From a plasmid, in the sequence record LC546831.1: a stretch of DNA of 64,000 nt; one strand, 5' to 3'. This document shows positions 3,096 through 50,379 of this stretch, piece by piece (positions within the stretch are counted from its first letter, which is position 1; the number at the start of each line of letters is the position of its first letter). The translations under genes were made by a program, and so were the position numbers. Under the pieces are notes generated by a model. It worked only from the letters and a program-made list of their open reading frames with translations. It did no database searches and was not told the DNA's origin.

Positions 3096-3968
<873 letters not shown>

Positions 3969-4105
3969 TCAATATTATTGAAGCATTTATCAGGGTTATT
4001 GTCTCATGAGCGGATACATATTTGAATGTATTTAGAAAAATAAACAAATAGGGGTTCCGCGCACATTTCCCCGAAAAGTGCCACCTGACGTCTAAGAAAC
4101 CATTA

Positions 4106-4165
4106 TTATCATGACATTTATTATCATGACATTTATTATCATGACATTTATTATCATGACATTAA
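4106..4165. repeat. Tandem 15-bp repeat (ATCATGACATTTATT, three extra copies) between the tnpR stop and the bla promoter region
   Basis: Sequence ATTATT(ATCATGACATTTATT)x3ATCATGACATTAACC; canonical Tn3 has a single ATTATTATCATGACATTAACC here. Confidence 0.8.
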
Positions 4166-4183
4166 CCTATAAAAATAAGCGTA

Positions 4184-4903
<720 letters not shown>

Positions 4904-7900
4904 ATGCCCGTTGACTTTCTGACCACTGAGCAGACTGAAAGCTATGGCAGATTCACCGGTGAACCGGATGAGCTTCAGCTGGCACGATATTTTCATCTTG
5001 ATGAAGCAGACAAGGAATTTATCGGAAAAAGCAGAGGTGATCACAACCGTCTGGGCATTGCCCTGCAAATTGGATGTGTCCGTTTTCTGGGCACCTTCCT
5101 CACCGATATGAATCATATTCCTTCCGGCGTCCGGCATTTTACCGCCAGACAGCTCGGGATTCGTGATATCACCGTTCTTGCAGAATACGGTCAGAGGGAA
5201 AATACCCGCCGTGAGCATGCAGCGCTGATACGTCAGCACTATCAGTATCGTGAATTTGCCTGGCCCTGGACATTTCGCCTTACCCGTCTTTTATATACCC
5301 GGAGCTGGATAAGCAACGAACGTCCTGGCCTGCTTTTCGATCTGGCGACAGGGTGGCTTATGCAACATCGTATTATTCTCCCCGGAGCCACTACGCTGAC
5401 CCGGTTGATTTCAGAGGTAAGGGAAAAGGCGACGTTGCGCCTGTGGAACAAACTGGCACTGATACCGTCAGCCGAACAACGTTCACAGCTGGAGATGCTG
5501 CTGGGGCCAACTGATTGCAGCCGCCTGTCTTTACTGGAATCACTGAAAAAAGGCCCTGTGACCATCAGTGGTCCGGCGTTTAATGAAGCAATTGAACGCT
5601 GGAAAACTCTGAACGATTTTGGCTTGCATGCTGACAACCTGAGTACACTCCCGGCTGTGCGCCTGAAAAATCTCGCACGTTATGCTGGTATGACTTCGGT
5701 GTTCAATATTGCCAGGATGTCACCGCAGAAAAGGATGGCGGTTCTGGTTGCCTTTGTCCTTGCATGGGAAACGCTGGCGTTGGATGATGCACTGGACGTT
5801 CTGGACGCCATGCTGGCCGTTATCATCCGTGACGCCAGAAAGATTGGGCAGAAAAAACGGCTCCGCTCGCTGAAGGATCTGGATAAATCTGCATTGGCGC
5901 TCGCCAGCGCATGTTCGTACCTGCTGAAAGAAGAAACACCGGACGAATCGATTCGTGCTGAGGTGTTCAGCTACATCCCCAGGCAAAAGCTGGCTGAAAT
6001 CATCACGCTTGTCCGTGAAATTGCCCGGCCCTCAGACGATAATTTTCATGAAGAAATGGTGGAGCAGTACGGGCGCGTTCGTCGTTTCCTGCCCCATCTG
6101 CTGAATACCGTTAAATTTTCATCCGCACCTGCCGGGGTTACCACTCTGAATGCCTGTGACTACCTCAGCCGGGAGTTCAGCTCACGGCGGCAGTTTTTTG
6201 ACGACGCACCAACGGAAATTATCAGTCGGTCATGGAAACGGCTGGTGATTAACAAGGAAAAACATATCACCCGCAGGGGATACACGCTCTGCTTTCTCAG
6301 TAAACTGCAGGATAGTCTGAGGCGGAGGGATGTCTACGTTACCGGCAGTAACCGGTGGGGAGATCCCCGAGCAAGATTACTACAGGGTGCTGACTGGCAG
6401 GCAAACCGGATTAAGGTTTATCGTTCTCTGGGACACCCGACAGACCCGCAGGAAGCAATAAAATCTCTGGGTCATCAGCTTGATAGTCGTTACAGACAGG
6501 TTGCTGCACGTCTTGGCGAAAATGAGGCTGTCGAACTCGATGTTTCTGGCCCGAAGCCCCGGTTGACAATTTCTCCCCTCGCCAGTCTTGATGAGCCGGA
6601 CAGTCTGAAACGACTGAGCAAAATGATCAGTGATCTGCTCCCTCCGGTGGATTTAACGGAGTTGCTGCTCGAAATTAACGCCCATACCGGATTTGCTGAT
6701 GAGTTTTTCCATGCTAGTGAAGCCAGTGCCAGAGTTGATGATCTGCCCGTCAGCATCAGCGCCGTGCTGATGGCTGAAGCCTGCAATATCGGTCTGGAAC
6801 CACTGATCAGATCAAATGTTCCTGCACTGACCCGACACCGGCTGAACTGGACAAAAGCGAACTATCTGCGGGCTGAAACTATCACCAGCGCTAATGCCAG
6901 ACTGGTTGATTTTCAGGCAACGCTGCCACTGGCACAGATATGGGGTGGCGGAGAAGTGGCATCTGCAGATGGAATGCGCTTTGTTACGCCAGTCAGAACA
7001 ATCAATGCCGGACCGAACCGCAAATACTTTGGTAATAACAGAGGGATCACCTGGTACAACTTTGTGTCCGATCAGTATTCCGGCTTTCATGGCATCGTTA
7101 TACCGGGGACGCTGAGGGACTCTATCTTTGTGCTGGAAGGCCTTCTGGAACAGGAGACCGGGCTGAATCCAACCGAAATTATGACCGATACAGCAGGTAC
7201 CAGCGAACTTGTCTTTGGCCTTTTCTGGCTGCTGGGATACCAGTTTTCTCCACGCCTGGCTGATGCCGGTGCTTCGGTTTTCTGGCGAATGGGCCATGAT
7301 GCCAACTATGGCGTGCTGAATGATATTGCCAGAGGGCAATCAGATCCCCGAAAAATAGTCCTTCAGTGGGACGAAATGATCCGGACCGCTGGCTCCCTGA
7401 AACTGGGCAAAGTACAGGCTTCAGTGCTGGTCCGTTCATTGCTGAAAAGTGAACGTCCTTCCGGACTGACTCAGGCAATCATTGAAGTGGGGCGCATCAA
7501 CAAAACGCTGTATCTGCTTAATTATATTGATGATGAAGATTACCGCCGGCGCATTCTGACCCAGCTTAATCGGGGAGAAAGCCGCCATGCCGTTGCCAGA
7601 GCCATCTGTCACGGTCAAAAAGGTGAGATAAGAAAACGATATACCGACGGTCAGGAAGATCAACTGGGCGCACTGGGGCTGGTCACTAACGCCGTCGTGT
7701 TATGGAACACTATGTATATGCAGGCAGCCCTGGATCATCTCCGGGCGCAAGGTGAAACACTGAATGATGAAGATATCGCACGCCTCTCCCCGCTTTGCCA
7801 CGGACATATCAATATGCTCGGCCATTATTCCTTCACGCTGGCAGAACTGGTGACCAAAGGACATCTGAGACCATTAAAAGAGGCGTCAGAGGTAGAAAAC

Positions 7901-7909
7901 GTTGCTTAA
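4904..7909 (+). CDS. tnpA: Tn3-family transposase TnpA (1001 aa)
   Basis: 1001-aa ORF MPVDFLTTEQTESYGRFTGEPDELQLARYFHL... ending 4 bp inside the right IR, as in Tn3. Confidence 0.97.
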   Translation: MPVDFLTTEQTESYGRFTGEPDELQLARYFHLDEADKEFIGKSRGDHNRLGIALQIGCVRFLGTFLTDMNHIPSGVRHFTARQLGIRDITVLAEYGQRENTRREHAALIRQHYQYREFAWPWTFRLTRLLYTRSWISNERPGLLFDLATGWLMQHRIILPGATTLTRLISEVREKATLRLWNKLALIPSAEQRSQLEMLLGPTDCSRLSLLESLKKGPVTISGPAFNEAIERWKTLNDFGLHADNLSTLPAVRLKNLARYAGMTSVFNIARMSPQKRMAVLVAFVLAWETLALDDALDVLDAMLAVIIRDARKIGQKKRLRSLKDLDKSALALASACSYLLKEETPDESIRAEVFSYIPRQKLAEIITLVREIARPSDDNFHEEMVEQYGRVRRFLPHLLNTVKFSSAPAGVTTLNACDYLSREFSSRRQFFDDAPTEIISRSWKRLVINKEKHITRRGYTLCFLSKLQDSLRRRDVYVTGSNRWGDPRARLLQGADWQANRIKVYRSLGHPTDPQEAIKSLGHQLDSRYRQVAARLGENEAVELDVSGPKPRLTISPLASLDEPDSLKRLSKMISDLLPPVDLTELLLEINAHTGFADEFFHASEASARVDDLPVSISAVLMAEACNIGLEPLIRSNVPALTRHRLNWTKANYLRAETITSANARLVDFQATLPLAQIWGGGEVASADGMRFVTPVRTINAGPNRKYFGNNRGITWYNFVSDQYSGFHGIVIPGTLRDSIFVLEGLLEQETGLNPTEIMTDTAGTSELVFGLFWLLGYQFSPRLADAGASVFWRMGHDANYGVLNDIARGQSDPRKIVLQWDEMIRTAGSLKLGKVQASVLVRSLLKSERPSGLTQAIIEVGRINKTLYLLNYIDDEDYRRRILTQLNRGESRHAVARAICHGQKGEIRKRYTDGQEDQLGALGLVTNAVVLWNTMYMQAALDHLRAQGETLNDEDIARLSPLCHGHINMLGHYSFTLAELVTKGHLRPLKEASEVENVA

Positions 7910-15506: not shown

Positions 15507-16439
15507 TTACTCCTGAAGGTGCAGCTCCTTCAGATTCGTTTCAAAGTAATCAACATAAATTCGCTCATTTTTGGGCTTCATTATCAGCTGAATACCGTTG
15601 GGAACGGGCGGACATGAGGCCCGGTAGGCGAACATCTCATCCTGGATATTCCGGAGCGTATAACCCAGTTGCTCTTCTTCTGCCCTTCCGGACACCCTGA
15701 TGCCGGATAATTCCTTCTCAACGTACTTTTTCAGCTTCTCGCTTCTTTTCATACTGCTGCGATTATCCAGAAACTGAAGCAAGAAATAGCGGATGACCGG
15801 CAGTGTGAACACCACATAGAAGAGGATCTCATTCAGCCCGGATTTCATGGAGATGCCGTAAACAAGCATCGCGACAGGCGAGACAATAAAAGCTGAAAGA
15901 TAAAACACGTGCAGCACCTTCCTGAGCGATTTGTCCCAGCCGAGGTTTTTTCCGTGGCACAGGAGCGCCATTACGGCCAGCGGCGCGTCATACACCTTAC
16001 TGACGTACCATCCCTCTTCGCCAAATCGCTTTCGTGCTTTTTCCGGACTGTCCCTGAAATAGGCAGCTGCCCGGATGATGTCATCCCGTGGGATCTCCTC
16101 CACCTTCAGGTCATTGCGCCGGATGCCCAGTACCCGGCAGTCGTACATTTCCTGGATTGAGGCTGCCTTCCTGCGCAGTGCCGCGATGTGTCCGCTGATG
16201 ATAATGTTAAAAGTAAGCACCAGGAGTCCATACAACCCCAGCAGTGAAGACAGCAGCTCTGAATCGACAAAGCCCCGGCTCCGGTTGTATACGGTAACGA
16301 GCGAAAGCAGGAGCGGCACGATGATGCTGAAGATAAAATTCAGCCTGTTCCAGTTTTTTACCCTGTCGTAAACACGGGCCTGCGCATACAGTAAATCCAG
16401 GTTTTCTCTGGTCGACTGGTTCGTGTAAATGGCATTCAT
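15507..16439 (-). CDS. SLATT-like multi-pass membrane effector (310 aa), downstream partner of the nucleotidyltransferase
   Basis: Two N-terminal TM helices (FIFSIIVPLLLSLVTVY, LLGLYGLLVLTFNIIISGHIAAL) and two more later; tightly coupled 3 bp after the SMODS gene. Confidence 0.55.
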   Translation of the reverse strand: MNAIYTNQSTRENLDLLYAQARVYDRVKNWNRLNFIFSIIVPLLLSLVTVYNRSRGFVDSELLSSLLGLYGLLVLTFNIIISGHIAALRRKAASIQEMYDCRVLGIRRNDLKVEEIPRDDIIRAAAYFRDSPEKARKRFGEEGWYVSKVYDAPLAVMALLCHGKNLGWDKSLRKVLHVFYLSAFIVSPVAMLVYGISMKSGLNEILFYVVFTLPVIRYFLLQFLDNRSSMKRSEKLKKYVEKELSGIRVSGRAEEEQLGYTLRNIQDEMFAYRASCPPVPNGIQLIMKPKNERIYVDYFETNLKELHLQE

Positions 16440-16442
16440 GGT

Positions 16443-17438
16443 TCACCCGTAAACAGGAAATAACGGCCCGAACACATCGCGCCATTTATTGATGGATTTT
16501 TCATACTCTTTGTTCTCCTCAAACCATCTCGCCTCCGATACCTTCTGCGCATCGAGATAACATCTGTCCGAAATCGCCTTACGCGCCTCGGCTGAAAGAG
16601 AGTTGATATCTCCCTGTATGCCTTTGGGATCGTTGACGGAGAACTGTACGTACAGACCGAGATGGCGGAAAAGCGCTTCCAGCTCCATATCGACAAACGA
16701 TGAGCAGGCTGACCTGCCGGCGTAATAGTCCAGAATCAGCGTCTCCAGCAGGTAGGAACTCATGGAGGGCATCGTCGGTCGCCGCTGCCAGTACTTGACT
16801 GCTCTGATGACATTCAGCACATTGCCGTCATTCTGCACATTGACAGTTGTGACTCTGTCCCTGTCTTTGCGGGGGTCGGTAAACTTCCAGTGGCCTTTGC
16901 CGTCGGGGATCAGATAGTAAGTCCGTCCAAAGGCATCTTCGCTGGTAATAAAGCAGGGTACGATGTCAAAATTCCAGTCCTTGCTGACCAGTTTCAGCGT
17001 GACGGCTTCCTGGTTACGCCTGATATCAGCTTGGGCGTATTGGGCAATGTCCTGCAGGCGGTTTTTAAAGGCATTCAGAATTCTGACGGAGCAGATAGTG
17101 TCAGCTCCGGAATGCCGATACCCGTGCAGGCGCGACCCCTCGCCGGAAGAGGTCAGAGTGATCCGGTCACTCAGAACGTTATAGGTGGCACTCTGCGCGG
17201 ATAAGCCGAACATCAGATCGATATCGTCCAGAGGACGGATTTTGGTTCTTCTGGCAAAGGATCCAAAGGCAATATGGATCGCTGGATAACTCACCGGAAA
17301 TTTATCGTCCTTCTCAAAATCATTCATCTTACCGATAAGCCAGTCGCGACTTGCACGCGCGTCATCGGTATCTGCCTTTTTGAGATTCACGGTATCTTTC
17401 ATAAATTCGTTAAAGGCAGCTATTACTGTGGTCGCCAT
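16443..17438 (-). CDS. SMODS-type cGAS/DncV-like nucleotidyltransferase (CBASS cyclase-like), 331 aa
   Basis: Pol-beta NTase motifs GSFARRTKIRPLDDIDLMF (GS...DxD) and third acidic NFDIVPCF; size and order (cyclase then TM effector) typical of minimal CBASS / SMODS-SLATT pairs. Confidence 0.6.
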   Translation of the reverse strand: MATTVIAAFNEFMKDTVNLKKADTDDARASRDWLIGKMNDFEKDDKFPVSYPAIHIAFGSFARRTKIRPLDDIDLMFGLSAQSATYNVLSDRITLTSSGEGSRLHGYRHSGADTICSVRILNAFKNRLQDIAQYAQADIRRNQEAVTLKLVSKDWNFDIVPCFITSEDAFGRTYYLIPDGKGHWKFTDPRKDRDRVTTVNVQNDGNVLNVIRAVKYWQRRPTMPSMSSYLLETLILDYYAGRSACSSFVDMELEALFRHLGLYVQFSVNDPKGIQGDINSLSAEARKAISDRCYLDAQKVSEARWFEENKEYEKSINKWRDVFGPLFPVYG

Positions 17439-36865: not shown

Positions 36866-37076
36866 GTATGTAATCTTTACACTGCCGAACAGGCAGCTTA
36901 GAAACTCTGGGTTAATAACGAAAATATACTGCCGTACAGGCAGATGCATCAATATTCAGCGAGTATATTAACAACAAAAAAAAGCACCTGATGGGTGTTT
37001 TTTTGGTTTTCATGTGCACCTGTTAGGTGTATTATTGCATTGTTGTTAAGCAGATGACAATTTTCAATAAAAGAGG

Positions 37077-44722: not shown

Positions 44723-45103
44723 ATGGCTAAAGTTCAAATTTATCTTTCAGATGAAACTTATAAGGACATAGAGCAACAGCTTATCACACATCGAGGAGAA
44801 AAGGGGCGTCAGGAGTCATTCTCTTCTTTTTCATCAATGTTGTTAGAACTTGGATTGAGAGTTTATAAAGCTCAACGAGAATCCGTTGCAGACCCATTTG
44901 ATCAAACGTCATTTAATAAAACTCTATTAGAGAATGTGTTGCTCACCAGTTTTACTATGTCAAAACTTCTGGGTATTAACTCTCACAATACTGAAATACA
45001 AGGGTTGTCACACTTTGTGATGAGAGACATGGTTAATGATATTAAAACGAAGACTTCTGATGAAATGTTAAAAATATTTACAGTGAAAGACGAATTTGAG
45101 TGA
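44723..45103 (+). CDS. traM: TraM (relaxosome accessory protein)
   Basis: MAKVQIYLSDETYKDIEQ... similar to F TraM MAKVNLYISNDAYEKI...; ...ASMLLELGLRV conserved; 126 aa. Confidence 0.85.
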   Translation: MAKVQIYLSDETYKDIEQQLITHRGEKGRQESFSSFSSMLLELGLRVYKAQRESVADPFDQTSFNKTLLENVLLTSFTMSKLLGINSHNTEIQGLSHFVMRDMVNDIKTKTSDEMLKIFTVKDEFE

Positions 45104-45113
45104 TAACTAGGGG

Positions 45114-45129
45114 GGCGTCGCCCGACGCC
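45114..45129. terminator. Hairpin GGCGTCGCCCGACGCC between convergent traM and the histidine kinase gene
   Basis: GC stem 11 bp after the traM stop. Confidence 0.35.
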
Positions 45130-45134
45130 TTCCC

Positions 45135-46847
45135 TTATAAAATCTCGTTTATTTTACTATTAATTTCTGATGTTCGTACCGGTTTAATAAGAACTGGCAC
45201 ACCATCAATTTCCTTTTCATTTGAGTAGGCAGTAATAAATATAAATGGTGTGTGCTTATTAGGTCCTTCCTCTCTTCTTATATATTTGAATAATTGGTCT
45301 CCGTTCATCATTGGCATTTGTAAATCCGATAAAATAACATCATAAGGCTTTCGCATTAACTTCTCTATTGCTCGATTTACTGATGATATTGACTCTCCAC
45401 GATACCCACAGCTGTTTAGAGTGGATGTCATCACGGAACAAGTTAACTCATTATCATCAATAAACAATATATTTATACCTTTATGCATCGCTTCAATTGT
45501 GTTATCACTTAGAACAATATCGCTAACATCAACATTTGATATTTCGACTGGGAGCTGAACTGTAAAGGTAGTCCCTATGCCTAGCTCACTGCTCAAGTGG
45601 ATATTACCGTTCATAGCTCGTATAACACCCTCAACTATAGCCAACCCCATGCCTGAACCAGGTATCCGAGATGTAGGGTTATCTATCCGTATGAATGGTT
45701 GGAAAATAGTTTTAAATTTCTCTTTAGGGATACCTATGCCAGTGTCAGATATCTGTATCGTAAGTGTGCTATTCTTATGTGATTTTGTTATTTGGCATGT
45801 AACCGTAATTAACCCTGCTTCCGTATACTTGAATGCATTAGTTAGCAAGTTTTCAACTACTTGTGATATTCTTGCAGAGTCACTTTTTATAAATACGTTG
45901 GGGCACTCTACCAAACTTGCTTTTAGATTATCTGATTTGTATTTCGAGTTGCAATCTGAAACTATGTTGCTTATAAGTGCTGCTATATTAAAATCGGATT
46001 TGTTTATTTTTACTGCGCCATTATCGATCTGAGCATACTCTGACAGATCACTCATTTGTCTCTCAATTTGAGTGGCAGCGTTTTCTAGTCTACGTATTAC
46101 TAGTTCATCGACTTTCTTATCTTTCGTGTTCATTATTAATTCAATTGAACCCACGATAGCTTGTAATGATGTTCTTAGTTCATGGCCAAGTTTCCCAAGG
46201 AATGCATTTTTATTATTGAATGATTTTTTCTCAGAATCTAACTGTTTATTAATAAGAATGATTTGCCTAAAAGATAGAGATACCATAATAAGCAATAAGA
46301 GATATAAGGTGATAATCGGTATCTTTATTGAACTCCATTTGTTCAGGTAGTCCTCATGAAGGATAGTTCTTTGCCTAACTTCGGCATGATCTGATATAGC
46401 GATCAGGTTTTTGTTCTCAATACTTATATCTTCAATATCTTTCAGGATGATCTCGTAATTCGTATTTTGTGAATTTAGCTCTTGGTCAATTTCATTCAAT
46501 ATGCTGTTGATTTTCGAAATTGACTCCGCATACCCTTGCTCCTCGTATAGGTAACGAGTTGACATGCTCTTGTTTAGTAACACATTGGACCCAGAAAATA
46601 GTAAGTCCAGGTCTTGTTGTAAACCCTGCTTATCATCAATCTTTAGACGCAATTGCCTTTCTGTCCTGGCACCGAAAGCTGCAAGCCGAATTGAAAATTT
46701 TGCAATCGCCCATGCGTAGTTTTCCTGTGGGCCAGCAGAGTTAATATTGTGCATTGATGAGAAATAGCGGTCATACATCCAGAAAAATGCCGAACTCAGT
46801 ACGACCAAAACAACAATGTATTGTGTTATGATACGTTTCAGTTTCAT
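45135..46847 (-). CDS. Hybrid sensor histidine kinase (two TM, periplasmic sensor, HisKA, HATPase_c, C-terminal receiver; no HPt), low-GC
   Basis: H-box LGKLGHELRTSLQAIVGSIELI; G-boxes DTGIGIP and GSGMGLAIV; receiver ILFIDDN...ILSDLQMP...LIKPV. Confidence 0.8.
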   Translation of the reverse strand: MKLKRIITQYIVVLVVLSSAFFWMYDRYFSSMHNINSAGPQENYAWAIAKFSIRLAAFGARTERQLRLKIDDKQGLQQDLDLLFSGSNVLLNKSMSTRYLYEEQGYAESISKINSILNEIDQELNSQNTNYEIILKDIEDISIENKNLIAISDHAEVRQRTILHEDYLNKWSSIKIPIITLYLLLLIMVSLSFRQIILINKQLDSEKKSFNNKNAFLGKLGHELRTSLQAIVGSIELIMNTKDKKVDELVIRRLENAATQIERQMSDLSEYAQIDNGAVKINKSDFNIAALISNIVSDCNSKYKSDNLKASLVECPNVFIKSDSARISQVVENLLTNAFKYTEAGLITVTCQITKSHKNSTLTIQISDTGIGIPKEKFKTIFQPFIRIDNPTSRIPGSGMGLAIVEGVIRAMNGNIHLSSELGIGTTFTVQLPVEISNVDVSDIVLSDNTIEAMHKGINILFIDDNELTCSVMTSTLNSCGYRGESISSVNRAIEKLMRKPYDVILSDLQMPMMNGDQLFKYIRREEGPNKHTPFIFITAYSNEKEIDGVPVLIKPVRTSEINSKINEIL

Positions 46848-47332
46848 TTTGGATCTACCGTTATATGTTCTACTTGCCATACAAATCGCGAGTAAAAAAT
46901 AGGTTTGTTAAGCTCTTCATAATGTTCATCTAAAGGATATATTACGAAGTAGGGACCAAAGTCGCGCACTTTTAACGGGGTATCATTTCTTTTGCTTGCA
47001 AGGATAATGTTGTACTTATCAACATCACTCATCGGAATGTCTACCCAATAGTCGTTTAAGGCATGGACTCGTACTATTTTTCCCGTTATGCCAACTTCTG
47101 TGAGTATGTCTTTGAAGCTTGTCCCGGTAAATTTTTCTTTCGGTGTCCAGGCAGTTGACGTCGTTATTGATGTCTTTGGTAGGGCATCCATCATAGCTTT
47201 CGTTAAAGTGACCGTGGTTTGTGTACTCCCATCAGTTACTCTCAGGTCACCTATCGGACGATCCTCTGCTTTCGTAATTATTGAGAAAAGACCAATAAAC
47301 ATAATTGCAGCATATTTTTTAAGCGTTTTCAT
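46844..47332 (-). CDS. Periplasmic protein with an oxidoreductase molybdopterin-binding-like fold (YedY/MsrP-like core, no Cys); signalling accessory
   Basis: Signal peptide; FTGTSFKDIL...IVRVHALNDYWVDIPMSDVDKYNIILASKRNDTPLKVRDFGPYFVIYP follows the sulfite-oxidase-family Mo-domain pattern; overlaps the kinase start. Confidence 0.45.
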   Translation of the reverse strand: MKTLKKYAAIMFIGLFSIITKAEDRPIGDLRVTDGSTQTTVTLTKAMMDALPKTSITTSTAWTPKEKFTGTSFKDILTEVGITGKIVRVHALNDYWVDIPMSDVDKYNIILASKRNDTPLKVRDFGPYFVIYPLDEHYEELNKPIFYSRFVWQVEHITVDPK

Positions 47333-48308
47333 AATAGCTCTCAAATTTCTTTTCTATGTATTGAATTAGTGACGGATTGTTGCTTTCATGCATCCCATTG
47401 ACTTTTTCACTGCCAATATAAACGGAGGTGCAGTTATTATAGTATTTGCTACGTAACTCTGGCTGTATTGATGTGAAAATGCAAAATGTAGGAATGTTGT
47501 AGCCAGCAGCTACATGTAGAGCAGATGAATCGCAAGTGTATAGGTATGATGAGTTAGCAATCATTTCTATGTACTGTCTTGTACTTTTACACATGCTTGT
47601 TACATTAAAGTATTTAGAATGATTCGATATTCCAAACCCGTATACTGGTAATCTAAATTTTTCATAAAGCATCGTGACAATTTTGTCATGATGCTTCTCA
47701 GGGATCGATCTGAGCTTAGTGCTGGCATACGGGCAGAATAATATATATTTGCTTTTTTTATTCTGAGGGATGGCTCGCTTTAACCAGGTGTTTCTCTTCC
47801 AGTCTTCATCTATTGAGTTATAGTCTAACCCTATGGTTTTCATGAAAAAATCATGCATTTCTAGTTCATTGAAGTCCTTCCAATACACCTGATTACCAAT
47901 ATCTACATTGGTATCATTTGGAGATATGTCCTGCAATGAAAATGGCATGTATTCTATTTTGCTTATGATTTCCTTAGCTTCATAGTATATGTCGTTTACA
48001 TATTTTGCGCAGTTTTTTGGCCGAATTACCCGGATTCTAATCTGGTCATTAATTTTTTTTATTGCTTCTAATGCACTGATGCCTATGATTGAATCACCAA
48101 GCGTAACACCCATTCCGTTTATTATCGTTAAGTCACGCGTCAATCTGTAGTCTATCGTGAAGTTTCTCAATGCACTGTTTAGTACCAAGCTACTGTTCAG
48201 CTTGGTCAGTTCACGTTCAATGGGACTGTATATTAAATCGAATGCAGAGACTATATCTGTTGAATTCAATAATAAACTGCCATTGTTTTGTGAAATGTCA
48301 ATGTTCAT
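47319..48308 (-). CDS. Glycosyltransferase family 9 (heptosyltransferase)-like protein, low-GC
   Basis: C-terminal TCDSSALHVAAGYNIPTFCIF resembles the GT9 motif G.DSG.MHLAAA.G.P.V.LF. Confidence 0.55.
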   Translation of the reverse strand: MNIDISQNNGSLLLNSTDIVSAFDLIYSPIERELTKLNSSLVLNSALRNFTIDYRLTRDLTIINGMGVTLGDSIIGISALEAIKKINDQIRIRVIRPKNCAKYVNDIYYEAKEIISKIEYMPFSLQDISPNDTNVDIGNQVYWKDFNELEMHDFFMKTIGLDYNSIDEDWKRNTWLKRAIPQNKKSKYILFCPYASTKLRSIPEKHHDKIVTMLYEKFRLPVYGFGISNHSKYFNVTSMCKSTRQYIEMIANSSYLYTCDSSALHVAAGYNIPTFCIFTSIQPELRSKYYNNCTSVYIGSEKVNGMHESNNPSLIQYIEKKFESYYENA

Positions 48309-49162
48309 GGTCTACTTGAAAAGTATTTGTCTACTAGAGCTTGAATCGAGTTAATCCTTAGCGGTTTACTATATGGTCCAAGGACATCGAAATCATTAAC
48401 GGCAGATGCAATTTCCCTATCTATATTTTCACCCACTTGGCCAGTGAGTATGATGATCATTGCATTTGGCTTTTCTGATTGTCGGATTTTTTGAACTAGA
48501 TCGTAGACTGAATGGTCTCTAACGACCCAGTCTAAAATGTAAGCGTCATATGGTTTTGTTACTGCAGATTTAAGCAAGCTATCAATATCGACGAAGATAT
48601 CAATATGATACTCTTTTCCCTGCATTATCCCTCTAATGCTTTCAACTATCGCAACATCATCATCAAGGATAGCTATCCTGGGATGCTTTCTTGTGAGCAC
48701 TGTAGAGTCGATGGATATCATGCTAACCCCACGCTTTGACTCCATGTAGAGCTGGTTCTCTTGAATTTCCTCTGTCTTAAAAACGTGCCATATGTCATTT
48801 ATTTTTACTGCGGAATAGGTTCTGGGTTCGTCCTGCCCGACACCCAAAAGATATGCTTCGCACTCTATCTCTGCACTGTTGATGTCCAGAACGGCACTAA
48901 CCTTATCAGCAAAGCCTGACTCGATAATCATGTAGAACTGACTCATCGTGAGACCTACTGAAACCACAACGCTTTGGAGTTGGGAGACTTCCCACTGAGC
49001 TTGCCCCTTTAGTTTTTTATGGGCTTGAGATGGGGATATTGATAGCACGCTTCTTACGTGGTCTACGTGCTTATGCTTTGCGATCCCCTGCATGTTAAGC
49101 ATCAGCGAAACAACATCCCCTATATTTGAACCACTTATGTATTTCTCGTTGGCTTCGCTCAT
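48305..49162 (-). CDS. Atypical response regulator: N-terminal putative HTH (VRSVLSISPSQAHKKLKG) and C-terminal receiver domain with an intact phospho-acceptor set; divergent from traY
   Basis: REC motifs IAILDDD...YDAYILDW...IIILTGQ...YSKPL; first gene of a 4-gene minus-strand operon with ATGA overlaps. Confidence 0.6.
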   Translation of the reverse strand: MSEANEKYISGSNIGDVVSLMLNMQGIAKHKHVDHVRSVLSISPSQAHKKLKGQAQWEVSQLQSVVVSVGLTMSQFYMIIESGFADKVSAVLDINSAEIECEAYLLGVGQDEPRTYSAVKINDIWHVFKTEEIQENQLYMESKRGVSMISIDSTVLTRKHPRIAILDDDVAIVESIRGIMQGKEYHIDIFVDIDSLLKSAVTKPYDAYILDWVVRDHSVYDLVQKIRQSEKPNAMIIILTGQVGENIDREIASAVNDFDVLGPYSKPLRINSIQALVDKYFSSRP

Positions 49163-49344
49163 TTTATGCTCTCTGAATTACATTCTTGTTCTTTTGGCAA
49201 GTCTAATAAAAGCGAAGAAAAAGGCAATAAAAACAAAAACTTTAGTGCAGTTTGCCTTCCAAAAAATGTCGTATTTGGATTGAAAATATATAAAGATTTC
49301 CTTAAACAACATAAAATATCTTTACATGTTGCTTCTCGATAGTG

Positions 49345-49388
49345 CATGATTGCGTCTAACGATAATCTTCTCTGCCATGATTGCGTCT
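49345..49388. promoter_or_regulatory. Two direct repeats CATGATTGCGTCT (49345-49357 and 49376-49388, 31-bp pitch) in the divergent promoter region upstream of traY
   Basis: Direct reading; about 85-125 bp upstream of the traY start codon. Confidence 0.4.
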
Positions 49389-49470
49389 GGGGAATCGATT
49401 CTTCGCTGGTGTTTGTAGGTTAGGTTGCTTTTGTTTGAACCAACAATATTAGCCATTAGGTTGATTTTTA

Positions 49471-49866
49471 ATGAAAAATCAAAAATCAAAATCAGAACAT
49501 GAATATCCGGCGATCCGCATAACCATAGATATATCGTCGGACACGAACAGAAAGCTCTCCTTATCCGCCAAACGGTCAGGTAGAGCTAAACGTCAGGAAG
49601 CGGGGATACGCCTATCCGACCACTTGGATAGCTTCATTGATATCTCGACTGACGCAATACAGCTTTCTAAGCTTCAACTGGAACCTGACGCTGAATATCC
49701 AGCGATTAGTATAACTGTCGATATATCGTCTGAAACAAACAGAAAACTCTCTTTATCGGCCAAGCGATGGGGTAGAGCGAAACGTCAAGAGGCGGTAATA
49801 CGGTTAGATCATCATTTAGATATCATTACAGATATTGCTACGGAGGGTAAAAGATTTCTGAGGTAA
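49471..49866 (+). CDS. traY: TraY (tandem ribbon-helix-helix relaxosome protein)
   Basis: Internal duplication EYPAIRITIDISSDTNRKLSLSAKRSGRAKRQEAGIRL / EYPAISITVDISSETNRKLSLSAKRWGRAKRQEAVIRL; 131 aa as in F TraY. Confidence 0.8.
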   Translation: MKNQKSKSEHEYPAIRITIDISSDTNRKLSLSAKRSGRAKRQEAGIRLSDHLDSFIDISTDAIQLSKLQLEPDAEYPAISITVDISSETNRKLSLSAKRWGRAKRQEAVIRLDHHLDIITDIATEGKRFLR

Positions 49867-50013
49867 CAACGCCAACACCAGGGGAACTACTAATCATAAT
49901 TTATTAACTTCGATGCAATTGAAAGGAGGTGAATACACAAGAAAGTTCGTGAATATCAGTTCTATATGCAAAACACACGTTTTCTGAATGTTAATTTCAA
50001 AAGGATATATGCA

Positions 50014-50379
50014 ATGAATGCTTCATTAAGCGCTCAGGGTTCTGCTATTGCCCAACGCCAGGGAATCTCACTAAGCAAGATGTTCTCACGTCAACGAGTG
50101 GTGAATTTCCTCAAACTGGTTCTGCCTTTTGCTGTGCTGACCGCGTTGTTCCCGCAACTGGCCCTGGCAGCCGGGGCTTCCGGTGACTTGCTTAAAACGG
50201 GTGACGATACCGTTAAGCAGACAGCCGGCAGCGGCTCCACCATGTACAAGTGGATCATCCTCGGTGAGGTCGTGACCGGGCTGTGCCTCTATGTCTTCAC
50301 GCACAGCTTCAAGTTCCTGTTCGGCTTCATCATCCTGTCCATCATCGGCAACGTCGGCATGAAGGTCGCCGGCTACTGA
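50014..50379 (+). CDS. traA: TraA propilin (F-type pilin)
   Basis: MNASLSAQGSAIA...FPQLALAAG...(G/A)S.....G.. matches the F propilin leader and mature pilin pattern. Confidence 0.85.
   Translation: MNASLSAQGSAIAQRQGISLSKMFSRQRVVNFLKLVLPFAVLTALFPQLALAAGASGDLLKTGDDTVKQTAGSGSTMYKWIILGEVVTGLCLYVFTHSFKFLFGFIILSIIGNVGMKVAGY

Follow-up and report, generated by a model that had tools for sequence, protein, structure and literature searches.

A 64,000-nucleotide stretch of plasmid DNA (sequence record LC546831.1; hereafter the window) carries an F-type transfer region in which the interval between traM and traY, the slot of traJ, holds four genes on the minus strand, as given by the open reading frame (ORF) list and Pfam domains. 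These genes, here called the cassette, encode a BetR-type regulator, a glycosyltransferase, a periplasmic protein and a hybrid histidine kinase, and their possible role in the control of transfer genes is the subject of this analysis. The cassette genes are as follows.

45135-46847, minus strand: hybrid sensor histidine kinase of 570 amino acids (Pfam HisKA, HATPase_c and REC).
46844-47332, minus strand: PruR-family periplasmic protein of 162 amino acids with a signal peptide (weak Pfam match to Oxidored_molyb; match to the PruR profile).
47319-48308, minus strand: cytoplasmic, GT9-family heptosyltransferase-like GT-B glycosyltransferase of 329 amino acids (Pfam Glyco_transf_9, 23.0 bits with a cut-off of 22).
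48305-49162, minus strand: regulator of 285 amino acids with an N-terminal BetR-type helix-turn-helix (HTH) domain and a C-terminal receiver (Pfam BetR, E 3.1e-15; Response_reg, E 1.7e-8).

The start codon of the kinase gene is taken from the annotation of the Serratia marcescens plasmid pSMBC31-93K (NZ_CP109825.1), and the ORF itself reaches 46880. Successive genes overlap by 4 nucleotides (ATGA), 14 nucleotides and 4 nucleotides (ATGA), and these junctions therefore argue for one translationally coupled operon with the regulator gene first, in which all four genes are predicted to be co-transcribed. The regulator and traY genes are divergent, with 308 bp between their starts. The original prediction had described such an operon in the traJ slot, divergent from traY and with the regulator about 300 bp away, and the ORFs, Pfam domains and overlapping junctions bear it out; the domain calls made there (HTH-REC, GT9-like, Oxidored_molyb-like and hybrid kinase) also find support in Pfam.

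Hydropathy places the two transmembrane segments of the kinase at residues ~6-24 and ~173-199, enclosing a periplasmic loop of ~148 residues. Its motifs include H222 in HisKA and D508 in REC, and its core is TorS-like, this being the best NCBIfam match (E 2.3e-58, below that model's cut-off). The receiver domain of the BetR-family regulator is intact, as residues D167, D168, D211, T240 and K266 are invariant in 8 homologues.

The small periplasmic protein is assigned to the PruR family of pterin-binding proteins on the basis of profile and structure comparisons. A profile built from 38 homologues matches the solved PruR structures of Agrobacterium tumefaciens (7kos/7kou; E 1.5e-46) and Klebsiella pneumoniae (7rkb; 3.5e-44), as well as two Vibrio structures (7kom and 7kp2). 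The AlphaFold2 (AF2) model of the protein (predicted local distance difference test score, pLDDT, 89.5) superposes in Foldseek on 7kom, 7kp2, 7kos and 7rkb with target-normalised template modelling (TM) scores of 0.82-0.90 and root-mean-square deviations of 1.7-3.0 Å. Residues L92, N93, Y95 and W152, invariant in the 38 homologues, sit in ALNDY and WQV stretches that align to 7kos, and are the counterparts of A. tumefaciens L101/N102, Y104 and W160, which mutagenesis has identified as important (LN102, Y104 and W160; PMC11194511). None of the eight versions compared contains a cysteine, and each begins with a signal-like N-terminal segment. The protein thus combines the features of PruR, namely a small secreted SUOX-fold protein with conserved pterin-site residues and without a Mo-ligand cysteine. 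A Mo-dependent oxidoreductase was considered and rejected, given the lack of cysteine and the closeness to PruR. The earlier description of a "Mo-fold accessory protein" is right as to periplasmic location and Oxidored_molyb-like fold, but a molybdoenzyme is contradicted by the PruR profile match and the missing cysteine. PruR-family membership also indicates that the signal read by the cassette is probably a pterin; the signal had been regarded as unknown, whereas profile and Foldseek matches place the periplasmic protein in a family with pterins as its ligand class.

The AF2 model of the glycosyltransferase is a confident GT-B fold (pLDDT 93.5), and its best Foldseek matches are WaaF (1psw), WaaC (2h1h/6dfe) and TibC (4rap), with E values of 1e-8 to 1e-6. 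Within the family, G71-D72 and D260...H265 are invariant, and the second of these stretches, D-S-x-x-x-H, falls on the ADP-heptose motif of WaaF in the alignment. The GT-B fold, D-S-x-x-x-H and N-terminal G-D characteristic of GT9 enzymes are accordingly all present, as in WaaC, WaaF and TibC. Unlike those enzymes, the cassette protein has an extra N-terminal segment of ~55 residues; it shares 9-13% identity with them at a TM score of ~0.5, and scores 21.7 bits against the NCBIfam heptosyltransferase II model (cut-off 134.6). Its substrate might be a pterin, lipopolysaccharide (LPS) or a protein. A disguised Hpt or receiver domain was also considered for this protein and rejected in view of the confident GT-B model with GT9 motifs. 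Stand-alone chromosomal homologues with 33-40% identity occur in Cedecea, Mycetohabitans and Paraburkholderia (loci L011, L012, L036 and L037), with no sensor genes nearby.

The cassette lies within a transfer region that otherwise follows F, with the gene order traM, traY and F-type traA-L-E-K-B (Pfam and gene order). The window matches four S. marcescens plasmids, pSMBC31-93K among them, over 73-100% of its length with 99.2-99.5% identity, and these four are typed conjugative, MOBF and MPF_F. The genes next to the cassette are the following.

44723-45103, plus strand: traM (relaxosome protein), left neighbour of the cassette (Pfam Tra_M, E 4.5e-32).
49471-49866, plus strand: traY, first gene of the transfer operon (Pfam TraY, E 8.7e-30, in two stretches).
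49966-50379, plus strand: traA (pilin), right neighbour (Pfam TraA, E 3.4e-26).

The absence of traJ, as originally claimed, is upheld by every search made. With F TraJ as the query, tblastn and phmmer reveal no homologue in the 64-kb window (best E 0.2-1); in the same search with F queries, TraM (E 2.5e-25) and TraY (E 7e-5) are recovered as positive controls. It had also been stated that the interval contains no plus-strand ORF. This does not hold, as shadow ORFs of up to 151 amino acids (45577-46032) run antisense to the kinase gene, although the five that were scanned match no NCBIfam model, including five TraJ models, all five of which recognise F TraJ itself. No FinP or traJ-leader RNA scores above the Rfam gathering thresholds in the window. 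In the complete plasmid NZ_CP027301.1, which is 99.4% identical to the window, PGAP annotates no traJ anywhere, and no finO is annotated (a sequence search for FinO was not made). A TraJ encoded elsewhere in the window was rejected on the empty F TraJ searches and the annotation of NZ_CP027301.1. Neither traJ nor FinP/FinO, the marks of a classical TraJ-regulated F-like region, was found by these means.

The cassette is not special to this plasmid, as had been supposed. A translated search finds relatives of the regulator in 480 PLSDB records (263 Klebsiella, 57 Escherichia, 35 Salmonella, 25 Serratia, 15 Shigella and others), across several classes of type IV secretion system (T4SS). Identity to the I-type representative is at least 90% in 219 records, and identity of at least 95% is found to the VirB/MOBC representative in 134 and to the Klebsiella F-type representative in 41; the window type accounts for 4 records. 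Among 419 close matches, 361 (86%) are typed conjugative. A separate genome scan for regulator relatives, based on one narrow peptide pattern, gave 19 loci, a sample rather than a census.

In all enterobacterial contexts opened, the four genes keep one order and are transcribed away from the gene at the head of a transfer cluster. The cassette stands beside F-type operons in K. pneumoniae pHNGS471-3 and a Serratia proteamaculans plasmid; beside traY and a VirB-type operon in the 39-kb K. pneumoniae plasmid pNY9_5 and in Serratia sp. Ag1; beside VirB-type MOBC transfer genes in plasmids of Shigella flexneri, Kluyvera, Pseudocitrobacter and Enterobacter; and beside I-type transfer genes in a MOBP K. 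pneumoniae plasmid of 87,095 bp. On the chromosomes of Serratia plymuthica and Serratia ureilytica, it resides in tRNA-Phe islands, by a small gene and genes for a TraI_2 (MOBH-type) relaxase and an integrase. In Burkholderiales (Xenophilus, Variovorax and Caldimonas), a related regulator gene and virB1-virB4 are transcribed divergently; genes for a kinase and a PruR-like protein adjoin the regulator gene, and there is no GT9 gene. Pfam and hhalign comparisons show no likeness to TraY for the gene that comes first on the divergent side in the I-type, VirB/MOBC and island settings. By extrapolation from the one to three representatives of each clade in which gene context was opened, the cassette is predicted to head transfer operons of F-type, VirB-type and I-type in about 400 plasmids, in addition to the tRNA-Phe island. 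With 28-60% protein identity between versions, the cassette is evidently both widespread and old.

The product of the first transfer gene links these contexts. Window TraY contains an internal tandem duplication (residues 11-62 versus 75-126, 75% identity; 80% identity over 111 nucleotides at the DNA level), which was seen by direct self-comparison and missed by a tandem-repeat finder. Its halves share 45-60% identity with the cassette-linked TraYs of loci L002, L003 (S. proteamaculans) and L004 (VirB-type), the C-terminal half 51-60%, and a DIATEGKRF C-terminal motif is common to all of them. Matches to F TraY are weak and local (N-terminal half, 36% over 47 residues; C-terminal half, 52% over 21 residues). 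The cassette-linked TraYs of the relatives are single units of 67 residues, and the duplication in the window appears to be recent and independent of the older one in F TraY.

The other Tra proteins of the window are F-like. Window TraM is of the classical F type (44% identity to F TraM; 43-48% to TraM of classical F-like plasmids of the pSLT/IncFIIK type), and identity to F is 45% for TraA, 58% for TraL, 56% for TraE, 56% for TraK and 64% for SLT. Compared with the other cassette-bearing F-type plasmids and with S. plymuthica p75, identity is 30-44% for SLT, TraL, TraE and TraK, and TraM and TraA are largely undetected; for TraL, TraE and TraK against the cassette-bearing plasmids, the range is 30-42%. 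As TraY is cassette-like while the other Tra proteins are F-like, the unit that moved was probably the cassette with its spacer and traY, recombined as one into an F-like tra region. The position of this unit, between F-type traM and F-type traA, is the one that traJ and a native traY occupy in F. Replacement of traJ by the cassette is plausible because TraL, TraE, TraK and SLT are nearest to those of F, which has traJ. Plasmid p75 shares its leading and maintenance backbone with the window plasmid (70-89% nucleotide identity), and the sole gene between its traM and traA encodes a 99-residue Arc-family DNA-binding protein on the minus strand (L039, 22838-23137); TraJ and two-component genes are absent from p75, and a TraY is not annotated. 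The slot is thus a swap point for regulators, in agreement with the diversity described for F-like plasmids (PMC5102898).

The divergent spacer between the regulator and traY genes (49163-49470) is AT-rich and contains the following predicted elements.

49200-49236, minus strand: predicted promoter of the regulator operon (-35 TTGCCT at 49222-49227, -10 TAGACT at 49200-49205; hexamers read by eye).
49225-49236, minus strand: conserved 12-bp box TTGTTTTTATTG, overlapping and preceding the regulator -35.
49321-49350, plus strand: predicted traY promoter (promoter scan; -35 TTTACA at 49321-49326, 18-nucleotide spacer, -10 CATGAT at 49345-49350).
49345-49357 and 49376-49388, plus strand: two exact 13-bp direct repeats CATGATTGCGTCT, 31 bp apart, on and just after the traY -10.

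The box TTGTTTTTATTG lies 74-80 nucleotides upstream of the regulator ATG and recurs with 0-1 mismatch in F-type, VirB+TraY-type and I-type versions; its 8-mer core CAATAAAA is present in five of seven spacers, which none of 200 shuffles reaches. The window has a single exact copy of the box. On the transfer side, the traY -35/-10 region is partly kept in the S. proteamaculans relative, and the CATGATTGCGTCT repeats are a candidate operator. CGATA-type cores were examined as a shared motif and rejected as unconvincing across the seven spacers.

Since divergent placement recurs beside F-type, VirB-type and I-type operons and in a genomic island, the four genes are rather likely to be a portable sensory cassette that controls transfer-gene expression in place of TraJ. 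This recurrence lends strength to the original proposal that conjugation genes answer to the sensor. In the proposed mechanism, PruR would inform the kinase, through the periplasmic domain of the latter, about pterins in the periplasm or outside the cell (their level or their redox state), and the kinase would set the phosphorylation state of the regulator. The regulator would act within the 308-bp spacer, on its own promoter and on that of traY, and would thereby gate expression of the transfer operon, taking the role of TraJ.

Several observations weigh against this model. The regulatory link rests on synteny, and the clade counts are extrapolations from the few contexts opened. Among the transfer-side promoters of the seven spacers, no shared regulator-binding motif was found beyond the regulator's own box. 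Pfam and NCBIfam detect no Hpt domain in the four cassette proteins, so that the Hpt domain or protein of a canonical phosphorelay is not supplied by the cassette. The periplasmic loop of the kinase carries the motif QENYAW-x7-R/Q/K (W being replaced by F in the clade of locus L006) and not the WX7E motif of DcpA-type PruR partner domains; contact between PruR and the kinase is therefore an assumption. In Rhizobium pTi1078, the relative adjoins repC and not transfer genes, and at loci L018, L023, L026 and L030 the relatives are likewise not adjacent to transfer genes. Finally, BetR-Reg1-Reg2 (EepR/EepS), the chromosomal paralogue of the cassette in Serratia, controls many host genes (PMC7618870), and the plasmid copy could do so too.

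Some of these observations are what would be expected if the cassette were cargo, that is, a BetR/EepR-type lifestyle switch that re-programmes host genes (motility, secretion and adhesion) without control of tra, and that lies beside the transfer promoter only because this AT-rich spot tolerates insertions. The chromosomal paralogue acts on many host genes to which it is not linked (PMC7618870), which fits such a switch, as do the relatives away from T4SS genes and the lack of a regulator site at transfer-side promoters. However, chance insertion would not repeat orientation and position so often: divergent placement recurs beside at least four unrelated sets of transfer genes and the Burkholderiales virB operons, a specific type of TraY accompanies the cassette in F-type as well as VirB-type systems, and the great majority of close matches are conjugative plasmids. 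The cargo explanation is hence unlikely.

The operon could instead have the GT9 enzyme as its main output, the sensor and regulator serving only for autoregulation. Heptose would then be added to the LPS core or to a surface or pilus protein, altering mating-pair formation, exclusion or phage susceptibility and not tra transcription. Retention of the gene inside the operon in plasmid, island and chromosomal Serratia versions, the catalytic-type motifs, the presence of TibC-type protein heptosyltransferases among the closest folds and the location of the conserved box at the cassette's own promoter are all consistent with this. Yet the Burkholderiales and Rhizobium versions have no GT9 gene, those of Burkholderiales still adjoin virB operons, homologues of the enzyme exist alone without a sensor, and the position of the cassette at the head of transfer operons is left unexplained, which makes the enzyme a doubtful candidate for the main output. 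Oriented juxtaposition with unrelated transfer systems and the co-travelling TraY weaken both this account and the cargo one.

The base composition of the region is relevant to the origin of the cassette. Guanine-plus-cytosine (GC) content is 37.6% in the cassette, 32.8% in the oriT-side spacer, 34.6% in traM, 33.4% in the regulator-traY spacer and 42.7% in traY; it rises to ~62% only from traK on and is ~50% in the left flank beyond oriT. Low GC content is thus a trait of the whole control region and does not mark an inserted island, in disagreement with the contrast of ~33% against ~60% flanks reported at first, and the low GC content was rejected as evidence of recent acquisition from a foreign source, since it is shared equally by traM, oriT, the spacer and traY. 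It is very improbable that, in this single lineage, traJ gave way to a recently arrived, plasmid-specific island of foreign, low-GC DNA that answers to some unidentified signal. The absence of traJ, the cassette in its slot and the likeness of the neighbouring Tra proteins to those of F, which has traJ, agree with such an account, but the GC data and the wide distribution and divergence of the cassette contradict it, and for the sensor protein a ligand class is known from its family.

The left end of the cassette has one further feature.

45114-45129, unstranded: GC-rich hairpin GGCGTCG-cc-CGACGCC (read off the sequence).

This hairpin fills part of the 31-nucleotide gap between the convergent stop codons of traM and the kinase gene, in AT-rich surroundings. 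It may act as a bidirectional terminator and mark where the cassette ends on the left; a consensus terminator scan made no call at this site.

A more speculative extension of the model of transfer control, and a rather improbable one, is that the cassette is a pterin communication device. The GT9 enzyme would glycosylate an excreted pterin (e.g., monapterin) into an element-specific signal that is read by PruR and the kinase and times conjugation. Pterin glycosides and pterin excretion are documented (PMC13259868). If such a device existed, plasmids and islands of four T4SS classes would time conjugation by donor density or by pterin, folate or redox state, and resistance plasmids would spread differently under antifolate drugs, which reroute pterin pools.

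If the cassette does control transfer, one sensory module would gate conjugation in hundreds of sequenced clinical plasmids, reaching in PLSDB ~219 K. pneumoniae I-type plasmids, ~134 VirB-type plasmids (Escherichia coli, Salmonella and Shigella) and F-type plasmids of Klebsiella and Serratia. Pterins would be a so far overlooked environmental or community cue for conjugation, and TraJ would be swappable for a complete signal-transduction module with its own TraY. Exposure to sulfonamide and trimethoprim perturbs pterin pools (PMC13259868), and the model would give reason to ask whether these drugs alter the transfer of resistance plasmids; the window itself carries blaTEM.

The blaTEM gene of the window belongs to a Tn3-family transposon (3096-7909), in which the genes for TEM beta-lactamase (3096-3956; NCBIfam, 663.7 bits) and a serine resolvase (4184-4810) are on the minus strand and that for the Tn3 transposase (4904-7909) is on the plus strand; the matching stretch of NZ_CP027301.1 has no annotated transposon or TEM genes. 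A CopA-like antisense RNA at 385-470 (Rfam RF00042, 76.8 bits) points to IncFII-type replication control, whereas MOB-suite types the replicon of the relatives as "IncI1". The leading region, which contains anti-restriction, psiB and ssb-type genes and in which no cas genes were seen, has one Rfam CRISPR-DR4 match (36877-36904, 37 bits) with the stem-loop CTGCCG-N-ACAGGCAG, of which a second, degenerate copy follows ~49 bp downstream; the repeats at 36877-36953 are possibly a solitary-repeat RNA anti-CRISPR or a mini-array. Two adjacent minus-strand genes, one for a CBASS-like oligonucleotide cyclase (16443-17438; E 1e-32, yet below the model cut-off) and the next for an unassigned protein of 310 residues (15507-16439), may form a plasmid-borne anti-phage defence pair.

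The component families of the cassette are known (PMC11194511; PMC7618870), and to that extent the claim of an undescribed regulatory replacement is too broad; the link to conjugation appears to be new. No paper that connects conjugation with this cassette, or with PruR or BetR systems in general, was found in the searchable literature, outside which most subscription journals lie.

The pterin-responsive PruR-DcpA and PruR-DTB systems (Greenwich et al., 2024; PMC11194511) are among the closest known relatives of the cassette, and its kinase has the architecture termed PruR-DTB. As in PruR-DTB, the pruR-like gene is immediately upstream of the kinase gene with a 4-nucleotide overlap, and the kinase has two transmembrane segments, a periplasmic loop of ~148 residues (~138-150 in PruR-DTB) and a TorS/BaeS-like core, here TorS-like, plus a receiver. 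A response-regulator gene is adjacent, as remarked for PruR-DTB clusters by the authors of PMC11194511. Unlike in PruR-DcpA and PruR-DTB, a GT9 enzyme is encoded inside the operon, and the location is on plasmids or islands at the head of transfer operons. The PruR literature mentions neither plasmids as carriers nor conjugation (PMC11194511; review PMC13259868). It also describes E. coli as lacking PruR (PMC11194511), whereas relatives of the cassette regulator are carried by 57 Escherichia plasmid records. The outputs of PruR-DTB systems are not known (PMC11194511), and control of transfer by the cassette, if confirmed, would be the first candidate output for this large family.

The chromosomal BetR-Reg1-Reg2 (EepR/EepS) system is genus-core in Serratia, is often inactivated in clinical isolates, and controls the type VI secretion system, motility and secondary metabolites (PMC7618870). 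At locus L019 of the Serratia sp. H1w chromosome, with flanks that look chromosomal and not mobile (ORF translations judged by eye), GT9-like, PruR-like and hybrid-kinase genes are convergent with a BetR+REC regulator gene. Orthologues of the L019 regulator occur on Mb-sized contigs of many Serratia species, with truncated forms in S. marcescens, and this distribution and these truncations fit the published description of BetR-Reg1-Reg2. The GT9-like gene of L019 (13143-14177) lies 23 nucleotides upstream of reg1, and Reg1 is a homologue of PruR-type pterin-binding proteins; the text of PMC7618870 mentions neither a glycosyltransferase nor pterins. Identity between window and L019 is 28.5% for the regulator, 34% for the glycosyltransferase, 47.7% for PruR and 35% for the kinase. 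Together with the different gene order and the plasmid or island location, these values identify the plasmid cassette as a paralogue, not an orthologue, of the whole chromosomal locus. Both systems combine a BetR-HTH and REC regulator with a hybrid transmembrane kinase and a periplasmic partner, and both are without an Hpt domain, the lack of which is noted for the chromosomal system as well (PMC7618870). Unlike the chromosomal regulator gene, which is convergent to the other three, that of the window is first in a single operon, and in contrast to the genus-core locus the cassette is mobile and paired with transfer genes.

Some F-like groups lack TraJ and FinO and carry other small DNA-binding proteins in the slot, and p75 comes from the data set that describes them ("Five shades of F", PMC5102898); no two-component system is reported there, in the text or in two supplementary files. 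The window resembles these groups in having no TraJ or FinO and other DNA-binding genes in the slot. It differs from the divergent TraJ-less F-type plasmids of that study in that its Tra proteins are nearer to those of F.

In F-like plasmids, the traY promoter is controlled by TraJ, ArcA and H-NS (PMC7303359; Lu et al., 2019, as cited in PMC12491478), and in F the host response regulator ArcA takes part in its activation (PMC7303359; PMC12491478). The window shares with these plasmids the traM-traY slot, an AT-rich promoter region and the operon downstream. Unlike in F, where the regulator gene is co-directional with the operon, that of the window is divergent, and its regulator is plasmid-encoded and has a sensor of its own.

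Two-component systems of mobile elements that switch on T4SS or transfer genes are represented by VirA/VirG (with ChvE) of Ti plasmids and RteA/RteB of CTnDOT, which respond to phenolics and sugars and to tetracycline, respectively. VirA is a hybrid kinase with a periplasmic domain that works with a periplasmic binding protein. Neither system is known from more than a single element family. The cassette is similarly encoded by mobile elements, and its kinase is, like VirA, a hybrid with a predicted periplasmic partner. Unlike VirA/VirG and RteA/RteB, the cassette spans several T4SS classes, with another predicted signal and a different regulator family.

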